Origin: Rhodospirillales bacterium
GTDB lineage: Bacteria; Pseudomonadota; Alphaproteobacteria; Rhodospirillales; UBA2165
Reading direction: 5' to 3'
DNA length: 64,000 nt
Assembly (NCBI GenBank): GCA_965207535.1
Contig: CBDBMR010000011.1
Coordinates: forward strand, 78,276-142,275
Shown here: positions 1-59,945 of the stretch, piece by piece
Position numbering within the stretch: position 1 is the first letter of the stretch
Layout of the letters: each line of letters opens with the position of its first letter
Program-made: the position numbers and the translations under genes
The notes under the pieces: generated by a model
What the model was told of the DNA's origin: nothing
Databases searched by the model: none
Seen by the model: the letters and a program-made list of their open reading frames with translations, nothing else

Positions 1-1672
1 CCAAGCCCAGCCGAGCGCAGCGGACGAGGAAGCTTTCCACCGCCTTGGCGGGCGACTTGATTTGCTCGGCGATGTCGTGGACCACCGGCGGCCTGGTATG
101 CCCGTCTTCGAGAATCGGCTTGATCCGCTTCCACAGCGCTTCGTCCTTGGACGACAGTTGGGGCTCGAAGCCCGGCAGGAAGTAGCTGGCGCCCCGGTTG
201 ACGATGGTTCCGTCGGCGACCAGGGTTTCGAGAATGGGCGTAAACCGTTTGGTCGGCATCCGGACACCGGTCTCGCGGCGGAGCCCGTCGGCACTGGGCC
301 CGGGCTTCTCGGGCGCGTTTTCGTGCCACGCCCGGAGCGCGGCCGTGATGCCGTCCCGGATTTCGGTCCAGTGGGCAGGCGCGTAGCCGGTCTCCAAATT
401 CTCACCGGCGCGGACGATCTCGACCGCCTCCCACAGGGCGGCTTGTTCGTCGCCGTTCAGGTTCCAGCCGACGATGAACGCCGGGAGATCGACGCCCAGC
501 GCCTGCCGGTCGAGAAGCTTGCGGAGCGCATCGGCGGCGGTGCGCTCCTCCATGGCGGCGATGGCGACGAGACGTTCCGGCCTGGCGCGGCCGCGGGCGG
601 GGCCGTGGGGGTCGAGCACCCGGCCGCCGGCGACGGTCCGGGTCGCCGACTGATCGCGAAGAATGAATCCGTCGCCGCAGAGCGCGCCGATCCGCCGGTC
701 GAGAACGATTTGCACCAACGCGCTCCCGCCGGGCGGGATGTTCTTGTCTTCGAGGACCGCCACGCGGCCCGGAATTTCGGCGGCGCCCAGGTGGACATGG
801 ACCGGCGTCCAGTGCTTGAGGGACTTGGCCTCGCCCGGCAGCACCCGGAGCCGGGCATCGAACCGGGGAACCGGATCGTGGATCGCATCGGCGACCAGCC
901 AGTCGCCCCGGTGCACGTCGTCCTTGGTGAGGTTTTGGCCGGTGATGTTGAGGGCGCAGCGCTGACCGGCCGCCCCCGCCTCCGCTTCCTCGTTCTGGGC
1001 GTGGATGCCGCGCACCCGGACGCGCTGGCCGCCAGGGGTAAGGGTCAGTTGATCGCCCACATTCACCGCGCCCGCGAACACCGAGCCGGTGACGATGAGG
1101 CCGGCGCCCTGAAGGGTGAATGCCCGGTCGATGGCGAGGCGGAAATTGCCATGAACCTCCCGGTCGCCGATCAACTCGGACGCGACGGCCAGATGCTCCT
1201 TGAGTTCACCGATCCCATCGCCGGTCACCGCGGACACCGGCAGGATTTCCGATCCCTCGAGGCCGGTCTCCATCAGGAGGAACTCGATCTGTTCGGTGAC
1301 GTCCCTGATCCTCGCCTCGTCGACCCGGTCGATCTTGGTCAGCGCGACCACCCCTTGATCGATTCCGAGGAGGTCGAGGATCGCCAGATGCTCCTCGGTC
1401 TGGGGCATGGGTCCGTCATCGGCGGCGATGACCAGCAGCGCGTAATCGATGCCGGAAACGCCGGCCAGCATGTTGCGAACGAAGCGCTCGTGACCCGGCA
1501 CATCGACAAATCCCATGACCTTGCCGCTGGCCATCGGCTTGTAGGCGAAGCCGAGATCGATGGACATGCCGCGTTTTTTCTCTTCCGGCAGCCGGTCGGT
1601 GTCGACCCCGGTCAATGCCTGCACCAGTAAGGTCTTGCCGTGGTCGATGTGGCCGGCGGTCGCGACGATCAC
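1..1672 (-). CDS. selB: Selenocysteine-specific translation elongation factor SelB (3' end runs off the left window edge)
   Basis: My own translation of the minus strand from the GTG at 1672 gives [44 protein letters not shown]...[10 protein letters not shown]...[10 protein letters not shown], the G1/G3/G4 motifs and the E. coli SelB N-terminal pattern. There is no stop before position 1, so the ORF track omits it. The start overlaps the selA stop as GTGA (1669-1672). Confidence 0.9.
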
Positions 1673-3114
1673 CTGGACGCGCCCCCCGGCGTCAACCGGT
1701 CGAGCTGGCCGACGAAGGCTTCCACGTCTTCGAGACAGCGGAGATCGAGAAGGAAGGCGCCTTCGTGGACCCGGCCGATGACCGGGATGGGGAGCGAGCG
1801 GAACGCCTTGGCGATTCGATTGAGCGCGGCGCCGCTGCCCCGCTTGCCGGTTGACGGGGTAATGCGGAGGGCGACGCTGTCCAGCCGCTCCACCGGCAGG
1901 GAGCCACTGCCGATCTGGCTCTGGCAGCCGGCCAGCTCGACGGCGGCGATCCCGTCAAGCGCCCGGGACACCGGATCGACGATCTGCTTGCCGGCCGCGG
2001 CAATTTCATCGGCCTGGCGCGCCAGCAGCCTGAGCGCCGGCATCCGCTCCACGAGGCGGTCGGGATCGAGATAGAGGCGGAGCACGGCGCTCAGCGCCGC
2101 CATGGTCACCTTGTCGATCCGCAAGGCCCGCTTCATCGGGTTCTTCTTTATTTTGTCGATGAGGTCCTTCTCGCCGACGATCATGCCGGCCTGCGGCCCG
2201 CCCAGCAGCTTGTCGCCGGAGAACGTCACCACGGACATGCCCTGGGCCAGGGCTTCCGCCGCCGTCGGTTCGTGGGGCAGGCCGAATTGGGCAAGGTCCA
2301 CCAATGTGCCGCTGCCGAGATCATCGACGCAGGGAATACCGTGTTTCCGTGCCAGTTGGGCGAGTTCGGAGTCGCTCACCTCCTTGGTGAAGCCCTGCAC
2401 CTCGTAGTTGGAGGTATGGACCTTCAGCAACAGCGCCGTCCTGCCGCTGATGGCTTCCTCGAAATCCTTCAGATGCGTCCGGTTGGTGGTCCCGACCTCA
2501 TGCATTTTGCAGCCGGCCCGGCGGATGATGTCGGGCATGCGGAACGAGCCGCCGATCTCCACCAGTTGGCCGCGGGAAACGGGAACCTCCTTGCCCTTGG
2601 CCAGCGTATTGAGGACCAGCAGGACCGCCGCCGCGTTGTTGTTCACCACCGTCGCCGCCTCGGCTCCGGTCAGCTCGGCCAACAGGTCATCCACGTGAAC
2701 GTCCCGGTCGCCCCGCCTGCCGCTCTCCAGATCGTATTCCAGGTTGGAGGCGCCGCCGGCAACGAGGGTCATGGCCTCGATCGCCTCCCGCGGCAGGGGC
2801 GCGCGGCCCAGGTTGGTGTGCAGGACCGTGCCCGTCAGGTTGAAGACTTTTTTGAGCGACGGCGCCGATTTCGCCGCCAGCAGATCCGCGACGGAAGCCA
2901 GCACGGCCTCTTCCGCGGTATCGGCATTCCCGCCGGCGCCGAGGACTCGCTGCCGCAACTCGCCGATGACGGCGCGGACGGCATCCGTGGTCGCCCGGCG
3001 GCCGTAGGCGTCGGCCAGCGCCCGGCCATCATCATGGCGCAGCAGCTTGTCTACCGACGGCAACACGGCCTGCAGCGGTTTGGAGGTCTCTGTCATGGTC
3101 GAACAGACGCCCAA
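1669..3114 (-). CDS. selA: L-seryl-tRNA(Sec) selenium transferase (selenocysteine synthase) SelA
   Basis: 481-aa ORF. The PLP-lysine region [17 protein letters not shown] and overall length are typical of SelA. It is translationally coupled to selB. The start could instead be the internal Met at 3096 (MTETSKPL). Confidence 0.9.
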
Positions 3115-3271: not shown

Positions 3272-4474
3272 ATGGTTAGGATGGACGCGCTGGCGCCCGC
3301 GATGGCGCAGCGGATGACAGACCTAGTGCTGCCGGAAGTCGAGAGCAGCGCCTGGAGCAAGGCGAAGCCGCTCAACGAAATGCGGGTGGCGATCGTCTCT
3401 TCCGCTGGACTTCATCTCAAAACCGACCGCCCGTTTTTCAGAGGCGACGTGGATTATCGGGTCATTCCCTCCGATACGGACGGCGCGGACCTGTTTATGA
3501 GTCACGTTTCGTCCAACTATGACCGGTCGGGATTTCAGGAAGACATCAACGTGTCCTTCCCCATCGATCGAATCAGGGAACTCGCCGAAGAAGGCTTCAT
3601 CGGCTCGATCGCGAAGAATCATATCTCATTCATGGGCGCGACCGACCCCACCGGCATGGAGCAGAAGGCCAAAGAGGCCGCGGCTATTCTCAAGGAGGAC
3701 AACGTCGACGCGGTCGCCCTGTCGGGCGTCTGACCCATGTGCACGCGCGCCGTGAGCGTGCTGGCCAACTACCTCGAGCGGGAAGGCTTCGTGACGGCGA
3801 TCATCAGCCTGATCAAGCTCCATACGGAGAAGATCGGCGTGCCGCGAGGTCTCGCCGTGCCGTTCGAGCTGGGCCGCCCTTATGGCGCGCCGACCGACGC
3901 CGAGTTCCAGAAACAGGTGCTGAAGCAGCAACTCAAACTCATGGAGAGCCCTTCGGGGCCCGTGCTGGCGGACTTCGATGACGACCCGCCGGACGGCAAG
4001 CCGTCCGACGGCTGGGACTGCGCCGTCGAGCTGCCGCCGGTATTCGAGGACACCGGTGATCTGGCCGGCCTCAGGGCCGCGGTGAACGCCGAGATCGACG
4101 CCCTCCGTCCGGCCTATGCGAAGGCCAGGGCACGCCGCGGAAGAACCACCGTCGGCGTCAGCGGAATGAATATCGAGATGGCGAGCGAGCTGCTCCTGGC
4201 CTTCGTCGAGGACGAGGGTATTCGCAGTCCCAATCCGGAATTCCCGCTGGCCATGGCGCTGAAGCTCGCCAGCGAAGACTTCAAGGCCTACTACTCCGAG
4301 GCCATGGCGGCCGAAGGCTGCATCGCGTCGAGCATGCAGATCGCCGATTGGTTCTGGAACGAAACCACCGGCGCCAAGGTGATGGCCGCGTTCAAGAAGG
4401 CCTGTGACGAGGCCTCGGACGAGAAAATCGTCGATATGGCTTGGGGCGTCGCGCCCGGCGGACGCCTGCCGTAG
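3272..4474 (+). CDS. GrdB/PrdB-family (glycine/sarcosine/betaine/D-proline reductase component B-like) selenoprotein with in-frame UGA (Sec) at 3731-3733
   Basis: Track ORFs 3272..3733 and 3737..4474 share one frame and are separated only by TGA plus one codon (CCC). The read-through sequence is ...NVDAVALSGV-U-PMCTRAVSVLANYLEREG..., which matches my recollection of the U-x-x-C-T-R context of GrdB-family selenoproteins. selA and selB are adjacent, and a hairpin follows the TGA. Confidence 0.8.
3741..3761 (+). promoter_or_regulatory. Candidate bacterial SECIS hairpin for the UGA at 3731
   Basis: GCACGC (3741-3746) and GCGTGC (3756-3761) form a perfect 6-bp GC-rich stem with the 9-nt loop GCGCCGUGA. 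The stem starts 8 nt after the UGA, and the loop contains GU. Confidence 0.45.
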
Positions 4475-5586: not shown

Positions 5587-7224
5587 TCAGTCCGCGCCGC
5601 CGCGCATCCGGTAACGCCGCTCCAGCGGCCTCCAGTCGGGCAGCTCATCGAAGGGCACGTCGATCAGCACGGGCGCGTCGGCGGCAAACGCTTGATCGAG
5701 TTTGTCCCCCAGATCCTCGGGGCTCTCTGCCCTCAATCCCATTGCACCGAAGGATTCGGCAAACTTGACGAAATCCGGATTGTCCAGGTCCCAGGCAATC
5801 AGCCGGCCGCCGAAATCCATGGATTGGTTCTTCTTCACGTTGCCGTAGGCGCCGTTGTTGAAAATCAGCGTGACCGTGTTGATCCCGTGGCGCACCGCCG
5901 TCGACAGCTCGGTGGCGGCGAACATGAAGCCGCCGTCTCCGGTCACGCTGATGACCTTCCTGTCGGGGTGCGCCACCTGCGCGCCGAGTGCCGTCGGGAA
6001 CCCGTAGCCGAGGGTTCCCTGGACGCCCGGCTGAATGTTGGTGCGCGGCCCATAGGTGGGAAATCCCCACCAACTGTAGAATCCCATCTGGGTGACCCCA
6101 AAACAGACGATGCCGTCTTCCGGCAAGCGGCTGCGGATCGCATCGCCATAGGCAACCTGCCCCGGCAGCGTTTCGGCCAGGTCCTTGCGCGCGGCCCGCT
6201 GCAAATCGACATACTCGTCCTTGCGTGACTCCCGCGAGCGGTTGTGCCGGGAAAGTCGGTCGGCCATCGCACCAAGGGCCGGCTGGCCGTGCGCCACCAG
6301 ATGGATGTCGGGTTTCCAGCGCGCCACCGATTGCTTGGGGTCGGGGTCCACCCTGATCAGCTTGACGTCGTCATCCCAGCCCCACTGGGTGATGGGCAGC
6401 AGCATCTTGGTACCCACGGCCAAGGCGACATCCACCTTGGGCCAGACATGGGACGCGGCGATGTTGTTTTGCGCCAGGTAGTGCCGGGCATCCACGGCAC
6501 CTAACCCTTGGGGGCTCATGAACACGGGCGCCTGCAGGGCTTCGGCCAGCTCCAGCAATTCGGTCTCGGCGCCGAAGATGCCGCCGCCGACAAATATCGC
6601 CGGGTTCTCCGCATTGCCGAGCAAGGCGGCCGCCTGCTCGATCAGGTCGGGGTCCGGCTCCATTTGCTCGTAGTCGCCGGGCCGCACGGAAATTTCAACC
6701 TCGGCCTCTTGGCGCATCACGTCAGGCGCCATTTCGAGGAATACCGGCCGGTTGCGTCCGGTATTCATCTGCCGGAACGCTTCGGCGACAAGCGCCGGCG
6801 CTTGCTCCGGGCTATCGGCACGGGCCTGCCACTTGGTCATCGCCGACATCGTCCCCTTCTGATCCATCATTTCGTGGAGAAGGCCAATGCTCTTGTCGAT
6901 GGCGCCGCTCGGAATCTGCCCGCCGACGCACAGCATCTTGGCGCCAAGACTGTATCCCGTGAGCAGGGCGGCGCCGGCGTTCAACACGCCCGGCCCGGGA
7001 ACAACGGCGCAAACCCCTTCCCGGCCCGTAGAGTGGGCGTACCCCAATGCCATATAGGCCGCGCCCTGCTCATGCCGGGTATGGACAACCCTCAGCCTAT
7101 CCTGCTCACCATGAAAGCTGTCGAACAGCGGGTCGAGTTGGGCGCCGGGCAGCCCGAATACGGCATCGACACCGTGGCCAACGATGGATTTTGTCAGCGC
7201 CGCCGCGCCGGTCAGTTTCGCCAC
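5587..7224 (-). CDS. Thiamine-pyrophosphate-dependent enzyme (acetolactate synthase large-subunit-like)
   Basis: The N-terminal TPP-pyrimidine domain has HGVDAVFGLPGAQL...HEQGAAYMALGYA...PGPGVLN. The C-terminal TPP-binding region has GTLGYGFP...VTGDGGFMF...NNGAYGNV. I trimmed the start to the GTG at 7224, because the 657-aa track ORF would overlap sat. Confidence 0.8.
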   Translation of the reverse strand: MAKLTGAAALTKSIVGHGVDAVFGLPGAQLDPLFDSFHGEQDRLRVVHTRHEQGAAYMALGYAHSTGREGVCAVVPGPGVLNAGAALLTGYSLGAKMLCVGGQIPSGAIDKSIGLLHEMMDQKGTMSAMTKWQARADSPEQAPALVAEAFRQMNTGRNRPVFLEMAPDVMRQEAEVEISVRPGDYEQMEPDPDLIEQAAALLGNAENPAIFVGGGIFGAETELLELAEALQAPVFMSPQGLGAVDARHYLAQNNIAASHVWPKVDVALAVGTKMLLPITQWGWDDDVKLIRVDPDPKQSVARWKPDIHLVAHGQPALGAMADRLSRHNRSRESRKDEYVDLQRAARKDLAETLPGQVAYGDAIRSRLPEDGIVCFGVTQMGFYSWWGFPTYGPRTNIQPGVQGTLGYGFPTALGAQVAHPDRKVISVTGDGGFMFAATELSTAVRHGINTVTLIFNNGAYGNVKKNQSMDFGGRLIAWDLDNPDFVKFAESFGAMGLRAESPEDLGDKLDQAFAADAPVLIDVPFDELPDWRPLERRYRMRGGAD

Positions 7225-7241: not shown

Positions 7242-8414
7242 TCAATTTTGATTGACGTAAAACTCGCGCAGTATAGCCACCACTTCCGGCCGGCTGAACT
7301 CGGTTGGGATTTCCTCGCCGCCGGCCAGCATCTCCCGCTGGCGGGTCCCCGAGATCTGGATCCTGTGTTCGTCGCCGTGCGGGCAGGAACGCGCCGTCGC
7401 CATACCGCCGCAGGCCCTGCAGTAAAACGTGATGTCGATCTTGAGGGGATGAATTTCGATCGCGCCTTCCCACAGGGTGTCGAAGATATTCTGAGCATCG
7501 AACGGCCCGTAATAGCTTCCGACGCCCGCGTGGTCCCGCCCGACGATCAAATGCGAGCAACCGTAGTTCTGCCGGACCACGGCGTGCAGCAGCGCTTCGC
7601 GGGGTCCCGCATAGCGCATCTCCAGCGGGACCCCGGCTTGAATGGCCGTGCCCTCCCGGAAGTAGTTCGAAATCATGGCGTCGATGGCCTGCACGCGGGT
7701 CTCCGCCGGGATGTCCCCCGGTTTGAGCTTTCCCAGCACCTGATGGATGAAGACACCGTCGGTCACCTCGATGGCAATTTTCACCAGGTGTTCGTGACTG
7801 CGGTGCATGGGGTTACGAGTTTGAAATGCCGCGATCCTCGACCAACCGAGTTCCTCGAACATAGCTCGGCTTTCGTGAGGATAGACGCAGAGTTCAGTGT
7901 ACTGCGCCCGGAACGGCCCCTCATCGAAAACCGTCACCGTCCCGCCGAGATTTACCGGCGGCTGTGCGAGGACCTTTTCAGCCCCGGGATGGGCCGGGTC
8001 CCCGGTCTTGAAGACGTTCGCATTCTCGAATGCGTGATCCGGTTCATACCGCTCCGACACCGCCATGGTGCCCATGACGGTGCCGGTTTCGCCGTCAACC
8101 AGTGCAACCTCATCCCCATCGTCGACGGTCTCCGCCAGATCCCGGGCCGCCGACAGGGTGATGGGAATGGGCCAGAATGTTCCATCGGCCATTTTCATGT
8201 CCCCGGCAACACCTCGCCAGTCGGCCTCCCCCATGAAACCGGTCAGCGGCGTATAGGCCCCCATACCCATCAGAATAAGGTCGGATGTCTCGCGGCTGGA
8301 CATGGGAACCTGGATGAGGCCTGCGGCGGCGGCCCGGCGCGCCTCGCGCTCGGACTCCTCGATCAGCAACGGGCGTAGAGCGTCTCCACCATGGGGAGAA
8401 ATCAGGTGCGGCAT
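7242..8414 (-). CDS. sat: Sulfate adenylyltransferase (ATP sulfurylase), homo-oligomeric Sat type
   Basis: Shows the QTRNPMHRSHEHL and GRDHAGVG motifs and a PUA-like N-terminal region. The start is set at the internal Met MPHLISPHGG (8414). Confidence 0.85.
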   Translation of the reverse strand: MPHLISPHGGDALRPLLIEESEREARRAAAAGLIQVPMSSRETSDLILMGMGAYTPLTGFMGEADWRGVAGDMKMADGTFWPIPITLSAARDLAETVDDGDEVALVDGETGTVMGTMAVSERYEPDHAFENANVFKTGDPAHPGAEKVLAQPPVNLGGTVTVFDEGPFRAQYTELCVYPHESRAMFEELGWSRIAAFQTRNPMHRSHEHLVKIAIEVTDGVFIHQVLGKLKPGDIPAETRVQAIDAMISNYFREGTAIQAGVPLEMRYAGPREALLHAVVRQNYGCSHLIVGRDHAGVGSYYGPFDAQNIFDTLWEGAIEIHPLKIDITFYCRACGGMATARSCPHGDEHRIQISGTRQREMLAGGEEIPTEFSRPEVVAILREFYVNQN

Positions 8415-9713: not shown

Positions 9714-10697
9714 ATGGAAACGCGGCAACTCGGCAACTCGGGAATCGAAATTCCGCCGTTCGGCATTGGCTGCAACCGGTTGACGGATTCCTCCGATCCC
9801 GGGCTTTTCGCGACCGTTGACGAAGCGCTCTCGCGGGGCGTCATGCATTTCGATTCCGCCGAGTCATATGGCGACGGAAAAAGCGAGGAATTCCTGGCTG
9901 CCGCGCTCAAGGGACGCCGGGACCGGGCGTTCATCGCCAGCAAGTTCGGCATGCGGCGCGGCGGCGGTAAAGCGGTCATCTGTGGAACGCCCGAATATCT
10001 GAGGGAGGCCTGCGATCTCAGCCTCGGACGGCTTCGGACCGACCGTATCGACCTCTACTACCAGCATCGCGTCGACCCGAACGTCCCGGTGGAAGAGACC
10101 TGGGGCGCCATGAAGGAACTGGTCAAAGCGGGCAAGGTTCGGAGCCTGGGGATCTCCAATCCCAGCGTGGAAGAAATCCGCCGCGCCCACGCCGTCCATC
10201 CCGTATCCGCGTTGCAGATGGAGTACTCTCTCTTCACCCGTGGGGTCGAAGACGAATTCCTGCCGCTTTGCGCGGAACTGGGTATCACCTTCGTCGCCTA
10301 TGGGCCGCTGGCCTTCGCCCTTCTGTCGGGCAAGATCACCAGCAAGGAGGACTTTCCCGAAACCGACCGTTACCGGCGAAACATGCCCCGTTTTCAGGAC
10401 GAAAACATCGGCCACAATCTGGAATTGCTGCGGACCCTCCGGGAGGTGGCCAGCGAGCTCGGCGGAACGCCCGGTCAGGTCGCCCTCAAGTGGCTGATGG
10501 ATAACCCGGTCCACGTGGTGCCGATCCCGGGATCGCGCCGCAAGGCGCATCTAGTCGAGAATGCCGAGGCCTGCGGCCTTGAACTGACCGCCGAGCAGTA
10601 TCGGCAGCTCTCAGACGCGTATCCCGCCGGTGCCGCCAAGGGAGATAATCGGCCGCAAACGGGCGCTAGGCATTCTGGGCGCGATAGAAGTCGCTGA
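9714..10697 (+). CDS. Aldo/keto reductase
   Basis: 327-aa ORF with AKR hallmarks: FDSAESYGDGKSEE, IDLYYQHRVDP, VRSLGISN, IPGSRR. Its 3' end overlaps the convergent AhpD-like gene by 32 nt. Confidence 0.85.
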   Translation: METRQLGNSGIEIPPFGIGCNRLTDSSDPGLFATVDEALSRGVMHFDSAESYGDGKSEEFLAAALKGRRDRAFIASKFGMRRGGGKAVICGTPEYLREACDLSLGRLRTDRIDLYYQHRVDPNVPVEETWGAMKELVKAGKVRSLGISNPSVEEIRRAHAVHPVSALQMEYSLFTRGVEDEFLPLCAELGITFVAYGPLAFALLSGKITSKEDFPETDRYRRNMPRFQDENIGHNLELLRTLREVASELGGTPGQVALKWLMDNPVHVVPIPGSRRKAHLVENAEACGLELTAEQYRQLSDAYPAGAAKGDNRPQTGARHSGRDRSR

Positions 10698-11775
10698 TCC
10701 CGATTTCATCCCGCATCTCGGTCGAGTCGGTGCCGCCCGCGGCTCCCTCGTAGGGAATCCCGATCGCATCGGCGAGCCGTACAAAGCCGTGGAATGCCGC
10801 GGCAATAGCCGCCGCGTCCACCGTTGCCGGCTCACCCATCAGTTCGAGCATTTTTTGCCGGTGAGCCGATGTCCCGTTCTCGTCCCGCCGCGCGACCGCC
10901 TCCGCGAAGCCCATCAGCAATTCGGCGTGCTCGATGTCGGTGTCGTGCCGGTATCCCTCCGTAATGTCGTGGAGGTCGACCTCGTTGTCGGCGGCGTTGC
11001 TGCTCTCACGGAGCATGTAGGCATGCGCCGTCGTTCAGTAGAGGCACTGATGAAGCGCCGATATCCGCGCCGCGATGATCTCGATCTGAGGCCGGCTGAT
11101 CGCACGCACGCTGTTACCGAAATCATAAACCTGCCCGCCCTCCAGATAGTGGGCGCCGGCAAGATTCCAATAGTCGCGCTTCGATTGGGGAACCATGCTG
11201 AGAGCCCGCTGGATGTAGCCGGCCGTCGGCGTGGGATACAGGGGACCGTCCTCCGGCACCTCGTCGCCCGGCTCGACGATAGGGAGCCACGCCGCCTCGC
11301 GCCGGGCGCCCGGCGGCAAATAGCGTGAGGGTTCACCGGCGGCGGGCCCGGACAGGACAGCCTCCGGAAGACCCAGGCCGAACGCGAAGGTATCCATGAT
11401 CATGGTCATGGCGATGACGCCGATCATCTCGACGAATTCGCCCTCGAGCATGCCGTCATCGATATGTCTCCGGCACCACCTCTCACTGAGCCGGCCGGGA
11501 TCGGTGACCACCCGGTGAACGATATCCACTTGCGCCGGAGTGAGATTGCCCAATGACGTATGTTCCAGGGACAGATTGTCGGGTGACAGCGCCTCCTTGA
11601 GTTCGGCGCAGGCCGGACAATTCCGGGCATTGCGGACTTCTTCGGCAATCCACACCCGCTGCTCGCCGGTGAGCCAGGTGCCGGGACGGGCAATGCAGGC
11701 GAACGCGGCCTCATGCGCACTCAACAGATCGCTCCGGATGTCATACGGGCTATCCGGGTACGGGTTACCTGCCAT
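10666..11775 (-). CDS. Two-domain carboxymuconolactone-decarboxylase/AhpD-like selenoprotein with in-frame UGA (Sec) at 11035-11037
   Basis: Track ORFs 11035..11877 and 10666..11016 share one frame, joined by TGA plus six sense codons. The read-through sequence is ...IIAARISALHQ-C-L-Y-U-TTAH-AYMLRE, the CMD/AhpD C-x-x-C-x3-H motif with Sec in place of the second Cys. An N-terminal repeat carries C-P-A-C. The start is set at MAGNPYP (11775), preceded by AAGGGGGAGAG. Confidence 0.75.
11008..11031 (-). promoter_or_regulatory. Candidate SECIS hairpin for the UGA at 11035-11037
   Basis: The mRNA reads ACGG-C-GCAUG-CCUA-CAUGC-U-CCGU, giving 4 + 5 bp with a C/U mismatch and a tetraloop. It starts 4 nt after the UGA. 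The loop has no GU, so this is only tentative. Confidence 0.3.
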
Positions 11776-11798
11776 CTCTCCCCCTTTCGTGGTCTGAA

Positions 11799-13334
11799 TC
11801 AAAGTTTGGTCCGGGAGCCGAAGCGGGCGAGGAACTTGGCCTCGGAGCCCCCGTCGTTGATCAGCGTCACCGCGCAACCCAACATCCGGTCCTTGTCGCC
11901 GGTACCGGCGCCGGGGCAGTCATCCAAACGGATTTTCGCCTGTGCCGGTTTGGGCTGATGCTTCTCGACCTGTAATGCGTGCGGCAAATCGGCCTCTTTC
12001 TTTTTACCGGGGACGAGGCGGTCGAGGAAATCCCCGCGCCGTGGATGAGGCGGCCCGTTGCCGCCGGTGATGATGATATCCGGCTCGACACCGCTTCCCT
12101 GGATCGAGCGCCCGCTCGGCAAATAGTAGAGCGCCGTGGTCAGGCGCAGCGCCCCGTCCCAGTCCAGCGGCGTGATCGTCTGAACCGATCCCTTGCCGAA
12201 GGAGCGTGCGCCGATCACCGTCGCCCGGTTTTGATCCTGCAGGGCGCCCGCGAGGATTTCGGACGCCGAGGCGGACCCGCGGTTGATCAGCACGACGATG
12301 GGCAGTCCGTCGGCGAGATCGCCGGTTTCGGCGTTGAAGGCGCGGCCATTGCCGTCCCGGTCCCGTACCGAAACGATATCGCCCCGGTCGAGGAAGGAAT
12401 CCGTCACCGCCACCGACTGACTCAGCAGGCCGCCGGGATTATTTCGGAGGTCCAGAACGAAGCCCCGCAGCTTGCCGCCGAGTTTGCGGCGTATCGCACT
12501 GACGGCGCGGCGCATTTCGTCATCGGCCCGCTGATTGAAACTGACGATGCGGATGACCCCGACATCGCCCTCGATGCTCCACTTGATCGGCCGGACCCGG
12601 ATGATTGCCCGGGTTACCGTGACGTCGAATTCCCCGGCACCCGCCCGCCGGATGGTCAGCCGCACATCGGTCTTGGGCTTGCCCCGCAACAGGCGGACCG
12701 CCTCGATCAACGACATCCCTTTGATTCCGGTGCCATCAACATGGGTGATCAGATCGCCTGATTTGATGCCCGCGCGGCTCGCCGGCGTATCCTCGATGGG
12801 GGCGATCACCTTGACGAACCCGTCCTCCATGTTGACCTCGATGCCCAGACCGCCGAATTCGCCGCGGGTGGTCACCTGGCTCTCACGGAATTCGTCGGGG
12901 TTCAGATACGAGGAATGGGGATCCAGATTGGTCAGCATGCCGTCGAGGGCGGCTTCGGTGACTTGGGCCGCGGTGAATGTCCCGGGCTTGCCCTCGAGCT
13001 TCTTGACGCCGTCCACGGCGGCCTTGATCAGCACGGCATCATCGATGGACTGCACATACTCCTGACGGACCCGCAGATAAGCATCACGGAAATGGCGCAA
13101 CTGCTGGTTACGCGAGGAATCCCGTTTGGCGTACTGGTCGAAGAGCTGGCGGAAGGTCTCGACGCTCTCGGCCGATTTCTCGTCGGCGGTAAACGCGTTG
13201 GTGAATCCGCCGAAGACCCGGGCAACCTCGGTGCCGCCGCTCGCGCAAGCCGTCAATCCACCGGCGCCGGCGAGCACAACGGCGACGGCTACGATGGCCA
13301 ATCGGGTCGATCGGGACCTCACGGTTTGCTTCAT
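11799..13334 (-). CDS. S41-family carboxy-terminal processing peptidase
   Basis: Has a signal/anchor N-terminus, a PDZ region (GGLGIEV...IEDTPASRAGIKSGDLITHVDG) and a catalytic region (DLRNNPGGLL, GSASASEILAGALQD). Confidence 0.85.
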   Translation of the reverse strand: MKQTVRSRSTRLAIVAVAVVLAGAGGLTACASGGTEVARVFGGFTNAFTADEKSAESVETFRQLFDQYAKRDSSRNQQLRHFRDAYLRVRQEYVQSIDDAVLIKAAVDGVKKLEGKPGTFTAAQVTEAALDGMLTNLDPHSSYLNPDEFRESQVTTRGEFGGLGIEVNMEDGFVKVIAPIEDTPASRAGIKSGDLITHVDGTGIKGMSLIEAVRLLRGKPKTDVRLTIRRAGAGEFDVTVTRAIIRVRPIKWSIEGDVGVIRIVSFNQRADDEMRRAVSAIRRKLGGKLRGFVLDLRNNPGGLLSQSVAVTDSFLDRGDIVSVRDRDGNGRAFNAETGDLADGLPIVVLINRGSASASEILAGALQDQNRATVIGARSFGKGSVQTITPLDWDGALRLTTALYYLPSGRSIQGSGVEPDIIITGGNGPPHPRRGDFLDRLVPGKKKEADLPHALQVEKHQPKPAQAKIRLDDCPGAGTGDKDRMLGCAVTLINDGGSEAKFLARFGSRTKL

Positions 13335-34335: not shown

Positions 34336-35160
34336 ATGACCGCACCAAAACTCATTGCGCCGCCCGGCGCGTGCGACACCCATATGCACGTCTATGAGCC
34401 GGGCTACGGCATGGCGCCGACCGCGCTGCTGCCGCCGCCGGACGGCAGGCTCGAGGACTATCGCCGCGTCCAGGAGCGGCTCGGCCTCGAACGGGTCGTT
34501 GTCGTCCAGCCGACAACCTATGGCAATGACAACCGTTGCACACTGGAAGCAATCGCAGCCCTTGGCGACGGCGCCCGCGGCGTGGCGGTGGTCGGTACGG
34601 GGGCCGGGGATGAGGTCTATGAGGACCTGACGGCACGGGGTATTCGGGGCATCCGGTTCCATATGCTGCCCGGCGGGGCGCTGCCATGGGAGGATTTGGA
34701 CGTTCTCGCCGATCGCGCCACGGCTCACGGCTGGCATATCCAATTACAGCTCGACGGCCGGCTCCTGCCGGATTTCGCAGCCCAGATCAGAGGCTGGCCC
34801 GGAGAGCTGGTGATGGATCACACGGGCAAGTTCCTGGATCCCGTGTCACCGGACCACGCGGCGTTCGAATGTCTCAAGGAGCTCGTCGCCGGCGGCGCCT
34901 GGATCAAGCTTTCGGCCCCGTACGAGACCTCGAAGGCCGGCCCGCCCCGTTTCGATGATGTCGCGGCACTGGCCCGGGAACTCGTTCGGGAATCGCCGGA
35001 CCATATGCTGTGGGCATCCAACTGGCCCCATCCGGGACAGGACCCGAGGCCCGACGACGCCATGCTGTTGGACACCCTGCTGCATTGGGCCGACGATGAA
35101 GCGACCCGCAACAAGATCCTGGTGGAGAATCCAGCGCGGCTATACGGATTTAACGATTGA
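34336..35160 (+). CDS. Amidohydrolase-2 family protein (LigI/2-pyrone-4,6-dicarboxylate hydrolase-like)
   Basis: ACDTHMHVY..., VVVQP, MDHTG and SNWPHP are metal-dependent hydrolase motifs. Confidence 0.75.
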   Translation: MTAPKLIAPPGACDTHMHVYEPGYGMAPTALLPPPDGRLEDYRRVQERLGLERVVVVQPTTYGNDNRCTLEAIAALGDGARGVAVVGTGAGDEVYEDLTARGIRGIRFHMLPGGALPWEDLDVLADRATAHGWHIQLQLDGRLLPDFAAQIRGWPGELVMDHTGKFLDPVSPDHAAFECLKELVAGGAWIKLSAPYETSKAGPPRFDDVAALARELVRESPDHMLWASNWPHPGQDPRPDDAMLLDTLLHWADDEATRNKILVENPARLYGFND

Positions 35161-59123: not shown

Positions 59124-59816
59124 CTAACCATTCAAGTGCCCCCCGATGGCGTCGGCGAATTCGTCCGGCTTGAAGTCCCTCGGTCCCTCGCCGCCCACAT
59201 AGGCAAGCTGGCCGCCGGCGTCGATGAGGAACAGCCGCATGGGGATGGCGATGTAGCGCTCTTCCACCGCATTGCCGATATCGTCGATCAGCATGGGCAT
59301 CTTGAGGTCGAGCATGTGCTGGCAGGCGCTCGCCACCTCGGTGCGTTCGTCGTCGGTGGTCGGTTCCCTGTAGACGATGCCCTCCTGCAGGTTCTTCGGC
59401 GAGCGCCAGCCGTCATCGGCATGGGCTTCGCGGATGTAAATTGACAGGAACTGCACATAGTCCTTGTACCGGTCGTAAATCTCGTTGAGGCGCACGGCCC
59501 AACCGCGATAGGGCGGTCACGTATAGGAGCCGAATATCAGCGCCACCGGCTTGCCGCGCAGGGATTCGAGGCTCACCGTCTCGCCGGTACGACCCTTTTC
59601 GGGATCGAGCACGTCGAGGGTGAAGGCAGGCGCCTCGTCGCCGACGCCGGGCACTTTCTCGCGGCGCGCCTTCTGCCACGCCATCTTGGCGTCAAATTCC
59701 TCTTCGGTGAGATCGGAGATATCGATCCAAACCTTGCGTTTCTCCGGATAGGGCAGATCGGCGAAAACCTTCACCAACTCACCCGGATCCATCGATCTGA
59801 AATCGCCGTCGGCCAT
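59124..59816 (-). CDS. Iodothyronine-deiodinase-like thioredoxin-fold selenoprotein with in-frame UGA (Sec) at 59517-59519
   Basis: Track ORFs 59517..59855 and 59124..59495 share one frame. The read-through sequence is ...LRGKPVALIFGSYT-U-PPYRGWAVRLNEIYDRYKDYVQFLSIYIREAHADDGW. It matches the deiodinase active site (NFGS(C/A)T-U-PPF) and the downstream (E/D)EAHxxDGW motif. The start is set at MADGDF (59816). Confidence 0.8.
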
Positions 59817-59945
59817 TATTTTGCCCCCCAACCAATGATTTTGTCGTGAAGTCACCCATGTTCGCGCCGGTGGCCTCGGGGGTCAAGACGGGTGCCGGTG
59901 ACATAAACTGCTTGTGAGACCGCGCCCAGCCGCTATGCAGAGGGC

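Follow-up and report, generated by a model that had tools for sequence, protein, structure and literature searches.

The selenoprotein family NF041238 ('AhpD_rel_CFYUT', alkylhydroperoxidase-related (seleno)protein) of NCBIfam corresponds, according to a 2026 review, to the Sargasso Sea family named 'hypothetical protein 1', with a CxxU motif and a single selenocysteine (Sec) (PMC13188914); the latter was first described in the selenoproteome survey of the Sargasso Sea (Zhang, Fomenko & Gladyshev 2005; PMC1088965). The selenoprotein family called 'AhpD-like', i.e., COG2128/TIGR01926, is the 'AhpD-like 1' of the GOS survey (PMC2398784). The AhpD-related selenoprotein family and its recoding signal are already catalogued, and from this follows that the gene considered here is a correct but ordinary find. 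It lies in a 64-kb stretch of DNA, hereafter the window, where the minus strand from 11775 to 10666 very probably constitutes a single gene with an in-frame UGA that is read as Sec, and encodes a selenoprotein of 369 residues that belongs to the NF041238 family. Its main parts are the following.

10666..11775, minus strand: very probable selenoprotein gene of the NF041238 family, 369 codons plus TAG (translation, NCBIfam match, N-terminus alignment)
11776..11786, minus strand: Shine-Dalgarno-like, purine-rich stretch AAGGGGGAGAG, directly before the ATG (read from the sequence)
11608..11619, minus strand: codons of C53-P-A-C56, the CxxC of the N-terminal domain (alignments, models, hhalign)
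11023..11046, minus strand: codons of the redox motif C244-L-Y-U247-T-T-A-H251 (translation; aligned to AhpD-like structures)
11035..11037, minus strand: UGA codon 247, very probably read as selenocysteine (TGA in all related loci, TGC in two distant homologues)

The open reading frames 11035..11877 and 10666..11016 on the minus strand share one frame, and the TGA at 11035-11037 is the sole interruption of the 369 codons that run from the ATG at 11775 to the TAG at 10668-10666. The likely start is the ATG at 11775-11773, where the N-termini of homologues align with MAGNPYPDS, and the AAGGGGGAGAG stretch in front of it is found 23 nt past the end of the S41 peptidase gene upstream. Between the TGA and the ATG at 11016 are six sense codons (T T A H A Y, 11034-11017), and the read-through product reads ...ARISALHQ-C244-L-Y-U247-T-T-A-H251-AYMLRES.... 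The shared frame, the TGA with its six sense codons and the motif are present in the sequence as a preliminary description of the locus had them. The same description reported an overlap of 32 nt (10666-10697) between the 3' end of the gene and a convergent aldo/keto reductase frame at 9714..10697; the overlap exists, but it is peculiar to the window strain, as in close relatives the gene and the aldo/keto reductase do not overlap and are 6 to 340 nt apart.

When the read-through protein is compared with family models, NF041238 matches with 427.6 bits, where the cutoff is 175, and the match extends end to end, residues 13-364 of the protein covering profile positions 1-356 of 357. The motif by which that family is recognised, C-x-Y-U-T with Sec or Cys in fourth place, followed by x-x-H, is found as C244-L-Y-U247-T-T-A-H251, and NCBI puts the NF041238 family name on homologues too. 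The match to the Pfam CMD model PF02627 is marginal (24.9 bits against 23) and includes only the 34 residues 225-258. The score against TIGR01926 (COG2128) is 38.7 bits, below the cutoff of 81.8, with a match confined to residues 226-341, and the score against TIGR04030 is also under its cutoff. The assignment to the 'AhpD-like' selenoprotein family, as initially proposed, therefore gives way to one to the separate 'AhpD-related' family NF041238.

Homologues were searched for with the exact C-terminal piece, the N-terminal piece and a full-length Cys homologue as queries. In genome and metagenome collections, 86 related loci with 53-95% protein identity were obtained, and in 86 of these 86 codon 247 is TGA; TAA, TAG or a sense codon is found at this position in none of them. 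C244, Y246, position 247 and H251 are invariant alignment columns. After the TGA the frame stays open for 120-131 codons and the protein is conserved wherever the contig is long enough, with one exception (L036), in which the open frame ends 69 codons after the TGA. Invariant residues of this downstream part are H251, M254, L255, R306, F328, R333, G339-I340-P341 and G359. Its conserved codons vary freely at synonymous sites, and from this follows that the segment after the UGA is under selection at the protein level; the 116-residue segment thus carries the conservation and the coding signal that had been asked about at the outset. Orthologues with Cys were also looked for, and Cys is found in the Sec column in homologues that include P0195, P0224, P0239, P0271-P0274 and P0320, of which P0195, P0224, P0239, P0271, P0274 and P0320 have the motif C-x-Y-C. 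In the distant homologues L093 and L094 the Cys codon is TGC. Such Cys forms are rare and distant and run uninterrupted across the junction as single proteins; the family almost always uses Sec. In the one metatranscriptome with a signal, only two contigs are found, of 172-173 nt and from a 92-94% relative; they correspond to the N-terminal part and do not cover the UGA.

In bacteria, a SECIS element is accepted when its apical loop lies 16-37 nt from the UGA, and this loop contains G-U. In the window gene, the MFE fold and the consensus structure give a conserved short hairpin, UGCUC-CGUGA-GAGCA, the CGUGA loop of which begins 24 nt past the A of the UGA, and which we regard, from the sequence comparison, as the SECIS and the predicted target of SelB. 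The elements of this region are as follows.

11001..11015, minus strand: apical hairpin of the predicted SECIS, stem UGCUC/GAGCA, loop CGUGA (MFE fold, consensus structure, pairing across 66 sequences)
11002..11019, minus strand: core of the predicted SECIS, 18-nt block TACATGCTCCGTGAGAGC, inside the coding sequence (codon entropy)
10989..11033, minus strand: extended stem-loop, predicted in the window strain only (MFE -17.8 kcal/mol, z = -2.3)

Since the apical stem is invariant, there is no compensatory covariation for it, and the case for the SECIS rests instead on the invariance of synonymous sites, measured as codon entropy, together with the Cys forms as a control. In 66 distinct sequences every synonymous site of the block TACATGCTCCGTGAGAGC is invariant. 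Of the conserved degenerate codon columns, about 140 in number, only those of residues 253, 255, 256, 257 and 258 have zero codon entropy, and the 18-nt block is missing from the Cys-form (TGC) homologues. In the same 66 sequences, 98.8% of the cells of the apical stem are paired. The divergent CFYU subgroup retains GCUC-CGUG[G/C]-GAGC, and the core for the whole family can be written AUGCUC-CGUGN-GAGC[AU]. The hairpin is short, with 5 bp in the window, and the z-score of the fold, -2.3, is modest. In the clade of the window Ser259 replaces Met, which makes the apical stem 5 bp instead of 7, and the shortened stem goes together with a lower helix rich in G+C. In the window strain this helix, ACGGCG/CGCCGC, flanks the apical hairpin. 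It is the long lower part of that strain's MFE structure and was considered as a family feature, but only 50% of it is paired across the family, and it is therefore clade-specific. The 9-bp interrupted hairpin at 11031-11008 that had been named at first, ACGGCGCAUG/CAUGCUCCGU with one C.U mismatch, does exist, but it is not a conserved element: across the 66 sequences it is 72.7% paired with no compensatory changes, and four of its nine pairs are unpaired in 28-51 of them. It shares bases with the apical hairpin at 11001-11015, with which it would compete, and it is unused in the MFE fold; what is conserved is the apical hairpin. A search of the window with Rfam gave tRNA-Lys as the one match and no other family.

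Genes for Sec incorporation are found about 7.5-11 kb from the selenoprotein gene.

1669..3114, minus strand: selA, L-seryl-tRNA(Sec) selenium transferase (TIGR00474, 591.7 bits, cutoff 267.9)
1..1672, minus strand: selB, Sec-specific elongation factor, partial (TIGR00475, 414.5 bits, cutoff 242.25)

The selB gene runs past the start of the window, matching profile positions 1-516 of 581 of TIGR00475, and its GTG start overlaps the stop of selA (GTGA). Neither ARAGORN nor Rfam gave a tRNA-Sec (selC) in the 64-kb window, and no selD was noticed among its examined genes. Of the 68 related loci with at least 1.5 kb of flank, 19 have selA/selB in the flanking sequence that was obtained. Two further genes of the window with an in-frame TGA are candidate selenoprotein genes; their UGAs are followed, at 17 and 20 nt, by CGUGA and CGUGC loops, in hairpins at 3745-3761 and 59488-59500. 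The window contains 17 hairpins with a CGUG loop, and a TGA occurs 18-29 nt upstream of only three, namely those of the three candidate genes; judged by these shared motifs, one SelB apparently serves three genes with a CGUG loop. Another TGA from the scan for split frames, at 35158-35160, has no CGUG hairpin and seems to be a normal stop that separates two genes.

If the TGA at codon 247 were a true stop, there would be two genes, of 246 and 116 residues, or a pseudogene that a nonsense mutation has disrupted. All gene callers used on metagenomes annotate the locus in this way, as 246 plus about 117 residues, and an ATG is indeed present six codons past the TGA. A nonsense mutation would, however, not recur at the identical codon in all loci over the identity range given above, and division at the TGA would halve the catalytic motif. 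The conserved active-site residues T-T-A-H are encoded between the TGA and the ATG. The Cys-form homologues are continuous over the junction, and the internal ATG is preceded not by a conserved ribosome-binding sequence but by the conserved SECIS block. The true-stop reading is thereby effectively refuted. Read-through in which a residue other than Sec is inserted, either by a near-cognate Trp or Cys tRNA or through reassignment of UGA in the whole organism, draws on the fact that the inserted residue is deduced from sequence and not from experiment. Against it stand the use of UGA as an ordinary stop by the upstream S41 peptidase gene and at the ends of many of the homologues' own genes, the presence of selA and selB in the window, the alignment of the UGA with a redox Cys in a classic Sec/Cys pair, and a hairpin with the same loop after each of the three in-frame UGAs in the window. 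We consider such read-through extremely improbable. The reading of the locus as a single AhpD/CMD-type gene with CxxU-x3-H by means of an in-frame UGA, as first suggested, is accordingly borne out by the family match, the conservation of the TGA and of the coding frame after it, the SECIS, the Cys homologues and selA/selB together.

The product is all-helical, and the fold of its C-terminal half, from about residue 190 to about 340, is that of AhpD and of the 'peroxidase-related' (COG2128-type) proteins. Profile matches in the PDB over residues 190-340 are 6k40, 3c1l, 2pfx, 2oyo and 2prr, and C244-x-x-U247-x3-H251 aligns with the CxxCxxxH of the solved AhpD-like structures 6k40 and 3c1l. The AlphaFold model of the Cys homologue P0239, which is 37% identical to the window protein, has a pLDDT of 93.5 and a pTM of 0.93. 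The model is all-helical, has the AhpD fold and places the CxxC at the N-terminus of a helix, and its best PDB matches are AhpD-like, among them 2prr, 3c1l and 6k40, with TM 0.65-0.74 (target-normalised). On these models, the C-terminal domain is assigned to the AhpD fold. The situation is different for the N-terminal half. The CxxC that had been pointed out there, C53-P-A-C56, is present, at a helix start in the predicted models and with C56 invariant and C53 nearly invariant in two alignments, but the likeness of this half to CMD is only weakly supported. Residues 1-185 have no sequence match in Pfam or the PDB. When the N- and C-terminal domains are aligned with hhalign, CPAC falls in register with CLYU at a weak probability of 32% (E = 4.7e-4), and when the N-terminal model is searched with Foldseek, the top 11 matches are all AhpD/CMD structures, also weak (E = 0.13-2.4, TM 0.32-0.47). 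The N-terminal half (about residues 10-155) is probably a second AhpD-like domain in degenerate form.

From these properties we infer a mechanism in which UGA-247 is decoded as selenocysteine and not as a stop. SelA would supply Sec-tRNA(Sec), and SelB loaded with it would bind the SECIS hairpin inside the coding sequence, so that U247 is inserted. In AhpD it is the second Cys of the CxxC that is the nucleophile, and the selenolate of U247 would attack the substrate, which may be a peroxide, a sulfenic acid or a disulfide. C244 would then resolve the intermediate, giving a selenenylsulfide, and the CxxU centre would be re-reduced by a thiol donor, a part that the CxxC of the N-terminal half may play.

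The protein could also be a selenoprotein with a chemistry other than that of AhpD, such as reductive dehalogenation of the Bmp8 type or the handling of selenium, sulfur or metal(loid)s. Bmp8, a debrominase with CMD fold (6ohi, 6ohj), is among the structural matches with TM 0.67-0.71 (target-normalised), the source organism comes from sponge metagenomes, and halogenated metabolites are common in sponges. Sulfate-activating enzymes are encoded near two unrelated loci (ATP sulfurylase at 7245-8414 in the window, CysD/CysNC in L097), the family is tightly linked to selAB, and no AhpC-like partner is conserved alongside. The best matches in sequence and fold belong, however, to the 'peroxidase-related' COG2128 group, including 6k40, which was deposited as an alkyl hydroperoxide reductase; CxxC-x3-H is the signature of AhpD, and the co-occurrences with neighbours are few and may be due to chance. 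We therefore judge a non-AhpD chemistry unlikely, though not negligibly so. Unlikely too is a composite proposal, in which the protein is a fused pseudo-dimer, like a sestrin, with a C53xxC56 relay that re-reduces the selenenylsulfide, and in which the gene is the preferred cargo of a mobile selA-selB island. Were this true, the pseudo-dimer with its relay would be a self-contained selenol reductase, and a selenoprotein island, with a SECIS co-adapted to the accompanying SelB, would sit in aerobic Proteobacteria; such an island would also account for the frequent place of the gene beside selAB and for the nucleotide invariance of the SECIS.

For the very probable NF041238 selenoprotein, the genomic context is uninformative about the substrate, because neighbours other than selAB are not conserved: near the related loci there is no conserved partner gene except selAB and no conserved ahpC, and neighbouring genes for an S41 peptidase, an aldo/keto reductase and a luciferase-like protein are common only to relatives with more than 90% identity. 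The practical point concerns annotation. It had been expected that the gene would be missed by automated annotation, and this holds for metagenome collections, where gene callers split it into 246 and about 117 residues of 'hypothetical protein' at every examined locus and where, in the collections searched, most entries of the family are such fragments; it does not hold for the pipeline of NCBI, which treats the gene correctly and has a dedicated model and name. The family is real and widespread in environmental metagenomes and MAGs, here of sponge-associated bacteria. What is added to the catalogue is a precise family-wide SECIS core with the Cys forms as negative control, the apparent service, as suggested by the common CGUG loop, of three genes by one SelB, and the finding that the family is often physically linked to selAB. 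These three additions leave the classification of the family unchanged.

When the window protein is set beside the systems described before, it shares with NF041238 the CxxU, the single Sec, the length of about 360 residues and the SECIS just after the UGA, while it has C-L-Y-U-T in place of the C-F-Y-U-T that names the model. With the 'AhpD-like' selenoproteins of COG2128/TIGR01926 it has in common the fold family, CxxU-x3-H and Sec at the second Cys position, and its C-terminal domain aligns to the solved members 2prr, 3c1l, 2pfx, 2oyo and 6k40. Those selenoproteins are, however, single-domain proteins of about 180-190 residues, whereas in the window protein about 190 residues form an additional N-terminal domain, which has a CxxC itself; NF041238 is a sister of that family, and the window protein is not a member of it. 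The AhpD of M. tuberculosis (1gu9/1knc; PF02627) is likewise all-helical with the same CxxCxxxH centre at a helix N-terminus, and by analogy a thiol(selenol)-disulfide chemistry is expected. Its sequence is very distant (E = 0.86 in the PDB profile search), and in contrast to it the window gene lacks an adjacent ahpC and has Sec in place of Cys and a chain of two domains.

A single chain of two AhpD-like helical halves is also found in the sestrins (human Sestrin2, 5dj4/5t0n), the only type of PDB match that spans the whole model (383-408 columns, TM 0.43-0.44, query-normalised). The match is weak, with an rmsd of 15-17 A and 7-9% identity, and this model-based likeness is a lead and not a classification, with common descent unsupported beyond the AhpD fold. 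Finally, the predicted SECIS is, like those of E. coli fdhF and bSECISearch, a stem-loop within the reading frame just 3' of the UGA. Compared with these it is very short, with an apical stem of 5-7 bp and the 5-nt loop CGUGA, and in the family of the window gene it is conserved as primary sequence rather than as a covarying structure.

Two open reading frames of the minus strand, 11035..11877 and 10666..11016, share one frame, and the translation across the UGA between them runs ARISALHQ-C-L-Y-U-T-T-A-H. The preliminary description had read this as an AhpD-like selenoprotein with a CxxU centre and a second CMD-like C-P-A-C motif; the paired frames, the UGA, the CxxU junction, the C-P-A-C (residues 53-56 of the read-through product) and a 32-nt overlap with the neighbouring gene were all recovered where it had placed them.

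Elements of the read-through frame
11775-11773, minus strand: ATG, likely start, with AAGGGGGAGAG just upstream
11037-11035, minus strand: in-frame TGA, after 246 sense codons counted from ATG 11775
between the TGA and ATG 11016, minus strand: six sense codons, translated T-T-A-H-A-Y
11016, minus strand: internal ATG, the start chosen by automatic ORF finders, with 115 more codons to the stop
10668-10666, minus strand: TAG stop, end of the read-through frame

When the 369-residue read-through product, with Cys put in place of the stop, is used in profile searches, it matches NCBIfam NF041238 with 427.6 bits, far above the cutoff of 175, over profile positions 1-356 of 357. This equivalog is named 'AhpD_rel_CFYUT', an 'alkylhydroperoxidase-related (seleno)protein'. 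The Pfam CMD match is marginal (24.9 bits versus 23, residues 225-258 only), and membership in TIGR01926, the classic COG2128 'AhpD-like' group, was rejected at 38.7 bits, under the cutoff of 81.8. An AhpD-type CxxU gene is present, as proposed, but its exact family is NF041238.

That the UGA is read as sense is supported by comparison. A word-indexed search through 5.8 billion proteins gave 572 matches; nearly all of the best 120 have 233-257 residues and end in ...HQC[VAL]Y, and are thus proteins cut short at this UGA. A search with the exact C-terminal piece of 122 residues against 1.8 billion cluster representatives gave three full-length proteins and mostly fragments of about 115 residues beginning at the Met of MLRES, which correspond to the second part of the wrongly split gene. 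DNA was fetched for 86 loci, six from close relatives (MAGs of Rhodospirillales with 92-95% identity) and 80 from metagenomes (53-91%), and TGA occupies the aligned codon in every one, with TAA, TAG or a sense codon in none. Where the contig allows, the frame past the TGA stays open for 120-131 codons, starting T-[TAVI]-[AG]-H-x-[YFN]-M-L-R-E, the sole exception being one locus (L036) where it ends after 69 codons. Residues H251, M254, L255, R306, F328, R333, G339-I340-P341 and G359 are conserved in this segment, and because synonymous codons vary freely at such conserved residues, the aligned sequences indicate that the segment is under selection at the protein level. Full-length homologues with 33-42% identity have Cys at the Sec column, in the motif CFYC (P0195, P0224, P0239, P0271 and P0274) or CTYC (P0320), and the codon there is TGC in loci L093 and L094. 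Such Cys forms are rare, eight among the best 120 matches to the Cys-form profile. A reassigned genetic code is excluded, since UGA also acts as a normal stop, both at other places in the window and within the family.

When 66 distinct segments of 72 nt spanning the UGA are aligned, positions A31-G42 and G44-C45 are absolutely invariant. About 140 columns of the alignment have a conserved amino acid with degenerate codons; of these, the codon entropy is zero only at residues 253, 255, 256, 257 and 258 (TAC, CTC, CGT, GAG, AGC), and 0.2-2.0 bits at all others tested. Residue 254, inside the run, is Met.

Elements of the putative SECIS
11019-11002, minus strand: invariant 18-nt block defined by codon entropy, which folds into a hairpin
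11015-11011 with 11005-11001, minus strand: apical stem, 5 bp in the window sequence
11033-10989, minus strand: extended structure with a G+C-rich lower helix (MFE -17.8 kcal/mol, z = -2.3), strain-specific

The block hairpin has the stem (A)UGCUC/GAGCA(U) and the loop CGUGA, which starts 24 nt downstream of the A of the UGA. The RNAalifold consensus consists of just the four invariant pairs, and for the five-pair version the pairing reaches 98.8%. A function of the block as RNA is supported by three controls. The hairpin site reads ATGCTTCAGATAATC in one Cys-form locus and ATGCTTCGCAGCAGT in the other, and neither forms a CGUG-type hairpin there. A divergent CFYU subgroup retains GCUC-CGUG[G/C]-GAGC at the same distance, although E is replaced by G or A in the protein. 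Finally, the whole window has, on both strands, 17 CGUGN-loop hairpins of at least 4 bp, and in only three of them does a TGA lie 18-29 nt upstream, namely those of the three genes with an in-frame UGA. A conserved hairpin after the UGA is thus present, but not where it had been proposed: the 9-bp interrupted hairpin at 11031-11008 exists in this strain, is only 72.7% paired across the family and would need the bases GCUCCGU, in competition with the apical hairpin. The lower helix, 50% paired across the family, was likewise rejected as a conserved element.

Further candidate selenoprotein genes in the window
3272-4474, plus strand: PrdB/GrdB-like, TGA 3731-3733, divergent from selA
59124-59855, minus strand: deiodinase-like, TGA 59517-59519

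The PrdB/GrdB-like candidate is split by its TGA into 153 and 245 aa at the motif ALSGV-U-P-M-C (UxxC). It scores 36.6 bits with Pfam GRDB (gathering score 22) and 145.9 with TIGR04483 PrdB, below the cutoff of 300, and has the hairpin gcgcgc-CGUGA-gcgugc, its loop identical to that of the AhpD-related gene, 17 nt past the UGA. The deiodinase-like candidate is split into 112 and 123 aa at FGSYT-U-PPYR, scores 72.2 bits with Pfam T4_deiodinase (gathering score 27) and 175.6 with NF038285 deiodinase_rel, below the cutoff of 250, and has the short hairpin gggc-CGUGC-gccu 20 nt past the UGA. The split-ORF scan also gave a TGA at 35158-35160 (plus strand) between the coding-like segments ...LYGFND * CRTRDIEMY...; since no CGUG-loop hairpin was found after it, this TGA probably serves as a normal stop between neighbouring genes.

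Genes of the Sec machinery
1669..3114, minus strand: selA (TIGR00474, 591.7 bits)
from 1672 and off the window start, minus strand: selB (TIGR00475, 414.5 bits)

These two genes, with a 4-nt GTGA overlap of selA stop and selB start, lie 7.5-11 kb downstream of the AhpD-related gene on its strand. No tRNA-Sec was found in the 64-kb window, and no selD was noticed among the genes examined there; selC, if it follows selB, would fall just outside, since selB runs off the window start. The gene order (S41 peptidase, AhpD-related gene, aldo/keto reductase, luciferase-like oxidoreductase, ATP sulfurylase, TPP enzyme, FAA hydrolase, split GRDB-like gene, selA, selB) is the same in L087, a 91% identical relative, and in more distant genomes selA and selB are the only recurrent neighbours. 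One or both occur within the fetched flanks of 19 of the 68 loci having at least 1.5 kb of flank (L016, L022, L024-L026, L028, L030, L032, L034, L052, L054-L056, L068, L072, L077, L079, L087 and L091), near-duplicates included, so that about 13 cases are distinct. Three arrangements occur, divergent upstream, same-strand upstream and same-strand downstream, and selAB is often immediately upstream and divergent or immediately downstream in the same orientation.

Other genes split in the manner typical of selenoproteins lie near the NF041238 gene and selB in distant genomes: two UGSC-domain ORFs of 94 and 77 aa (L090, 10561-11112) and an AhpC-TSA ORF pair of 44 and 109 aa adjoining a DsbA gene (L091, 4112-4594). 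This suggests selenoprotein islands around selAB. An ATP sulfurylase (7245-8414, minus strand) and a TPP-dependent enzyme (5590-7221, minus strand) lie near the gene in the window, and CysD, CysN/C and a TPP-dependent enzyme within a few genes of it in L097 (4845-6470 and 9320-12150); sulfate-activating enzymes nearby in two unrelated genomes could reflect chance or a link to sulfur/selenium oxyanion metabolism.

The convergent aldo/keto-reductase frame, 9714..10697, overlaps the last 32 nt of the gene (10666-10697). The overlap is real in the window but is not conserved: relatives have 6 to 340 nt between the two genes, and in this strain specifically the variable C-terminal tail of the reductase is extended past ...AAKGDNRP, which produces the overlap. 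The sequence of 10300-12300 occurs in sponge metagenomes (runs X1-X21), and one sponge metatranscriptome has two contigs of 172-173 nt with 92-94% identity, at 11098-11269 and 11397-11566, which cover the N-terminal part of a relative's gene with the UGA outside them and suggest that this relative's gene is transcribed.

The gene is an ordinary member of an already known family of selenoproteins, which was described in 2005 and whose NF041238 name NCBI applies to GenBank homologues. A review (PMC13188914) equates the family with 'hypothetical protein 1' of the 2005 Sargasso Sea paper, where it comprised four sequences that share the CXXU motif and for which a SECIS was predicted, functional evidence being absent there (PMC1088965). 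The claim that automated annotation misses such genes is right for public protein collections, where hundreds of 'proteins' of about 115 aa are the C-terminal third only, called from the internal Met of MLRES, and matching N-terminal fragments of about 246 aa also occur, a systematic annotation artefact; it is wrong for NCBI. With four corrections (SECIS position, exact family, annotation, overlap) the original interpretation is supported in its essentials. The additions to the known are modest: a SECIS core sharply delimited across the whole family, with the Cys forms as control, evidence for one loop motif common to three genes of the organism, and the frequent linkage of NF041238 to selAB.

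The family profile matches solved COG2128-type AhpD-like proteins (6k40, 3c1l, 2pfx, 2oyo and 2prr; E = 1e-11 to 3e-8) over residues ~190-340, and C244-x-x-U247-x3-H251 aligns onto their CxxCxxxH. By analogy with the established chemistry of AhpD, the selenolate of U247, at the second motif position, would be the nucleophile, C244 would resolve it, and a thiol donor, possibly the N-terminal CxxC, would recycle the CxxU centre. A non-peroxidase chemistry of this centre is a live rival. In the N-terminal half C56 is invariant and C53 near-invariant, at a helix start; hhalign sets C53-P-A-C56 on C244-L-Y-U247 with a probability of only 32%, and the top 11 Foldseek matches of the N-terminal model are without exception AhpD/CMD structures, though with E of 0.13 or weaker. 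The C-P-A-C is there, then, but the His of the x3-H signature is missing, and a second CMD-like domain is plausible rather than established. For P0239, a full-length Cys homologue, an AlphaFold model built from a 52-row alignment including the window's two exact pieces is confident (pLDDT 93.5, pTM 0.93). Its best PDB matches are the same AhpD-like proteins, with TM 0.65-0.74 normalised to the target over ~195 columns. The model further resembles Bmp8, a debrominase with the CMD fold, and, weakly over its whole length, Sestrin2, a chain of two AhpD-like halves.
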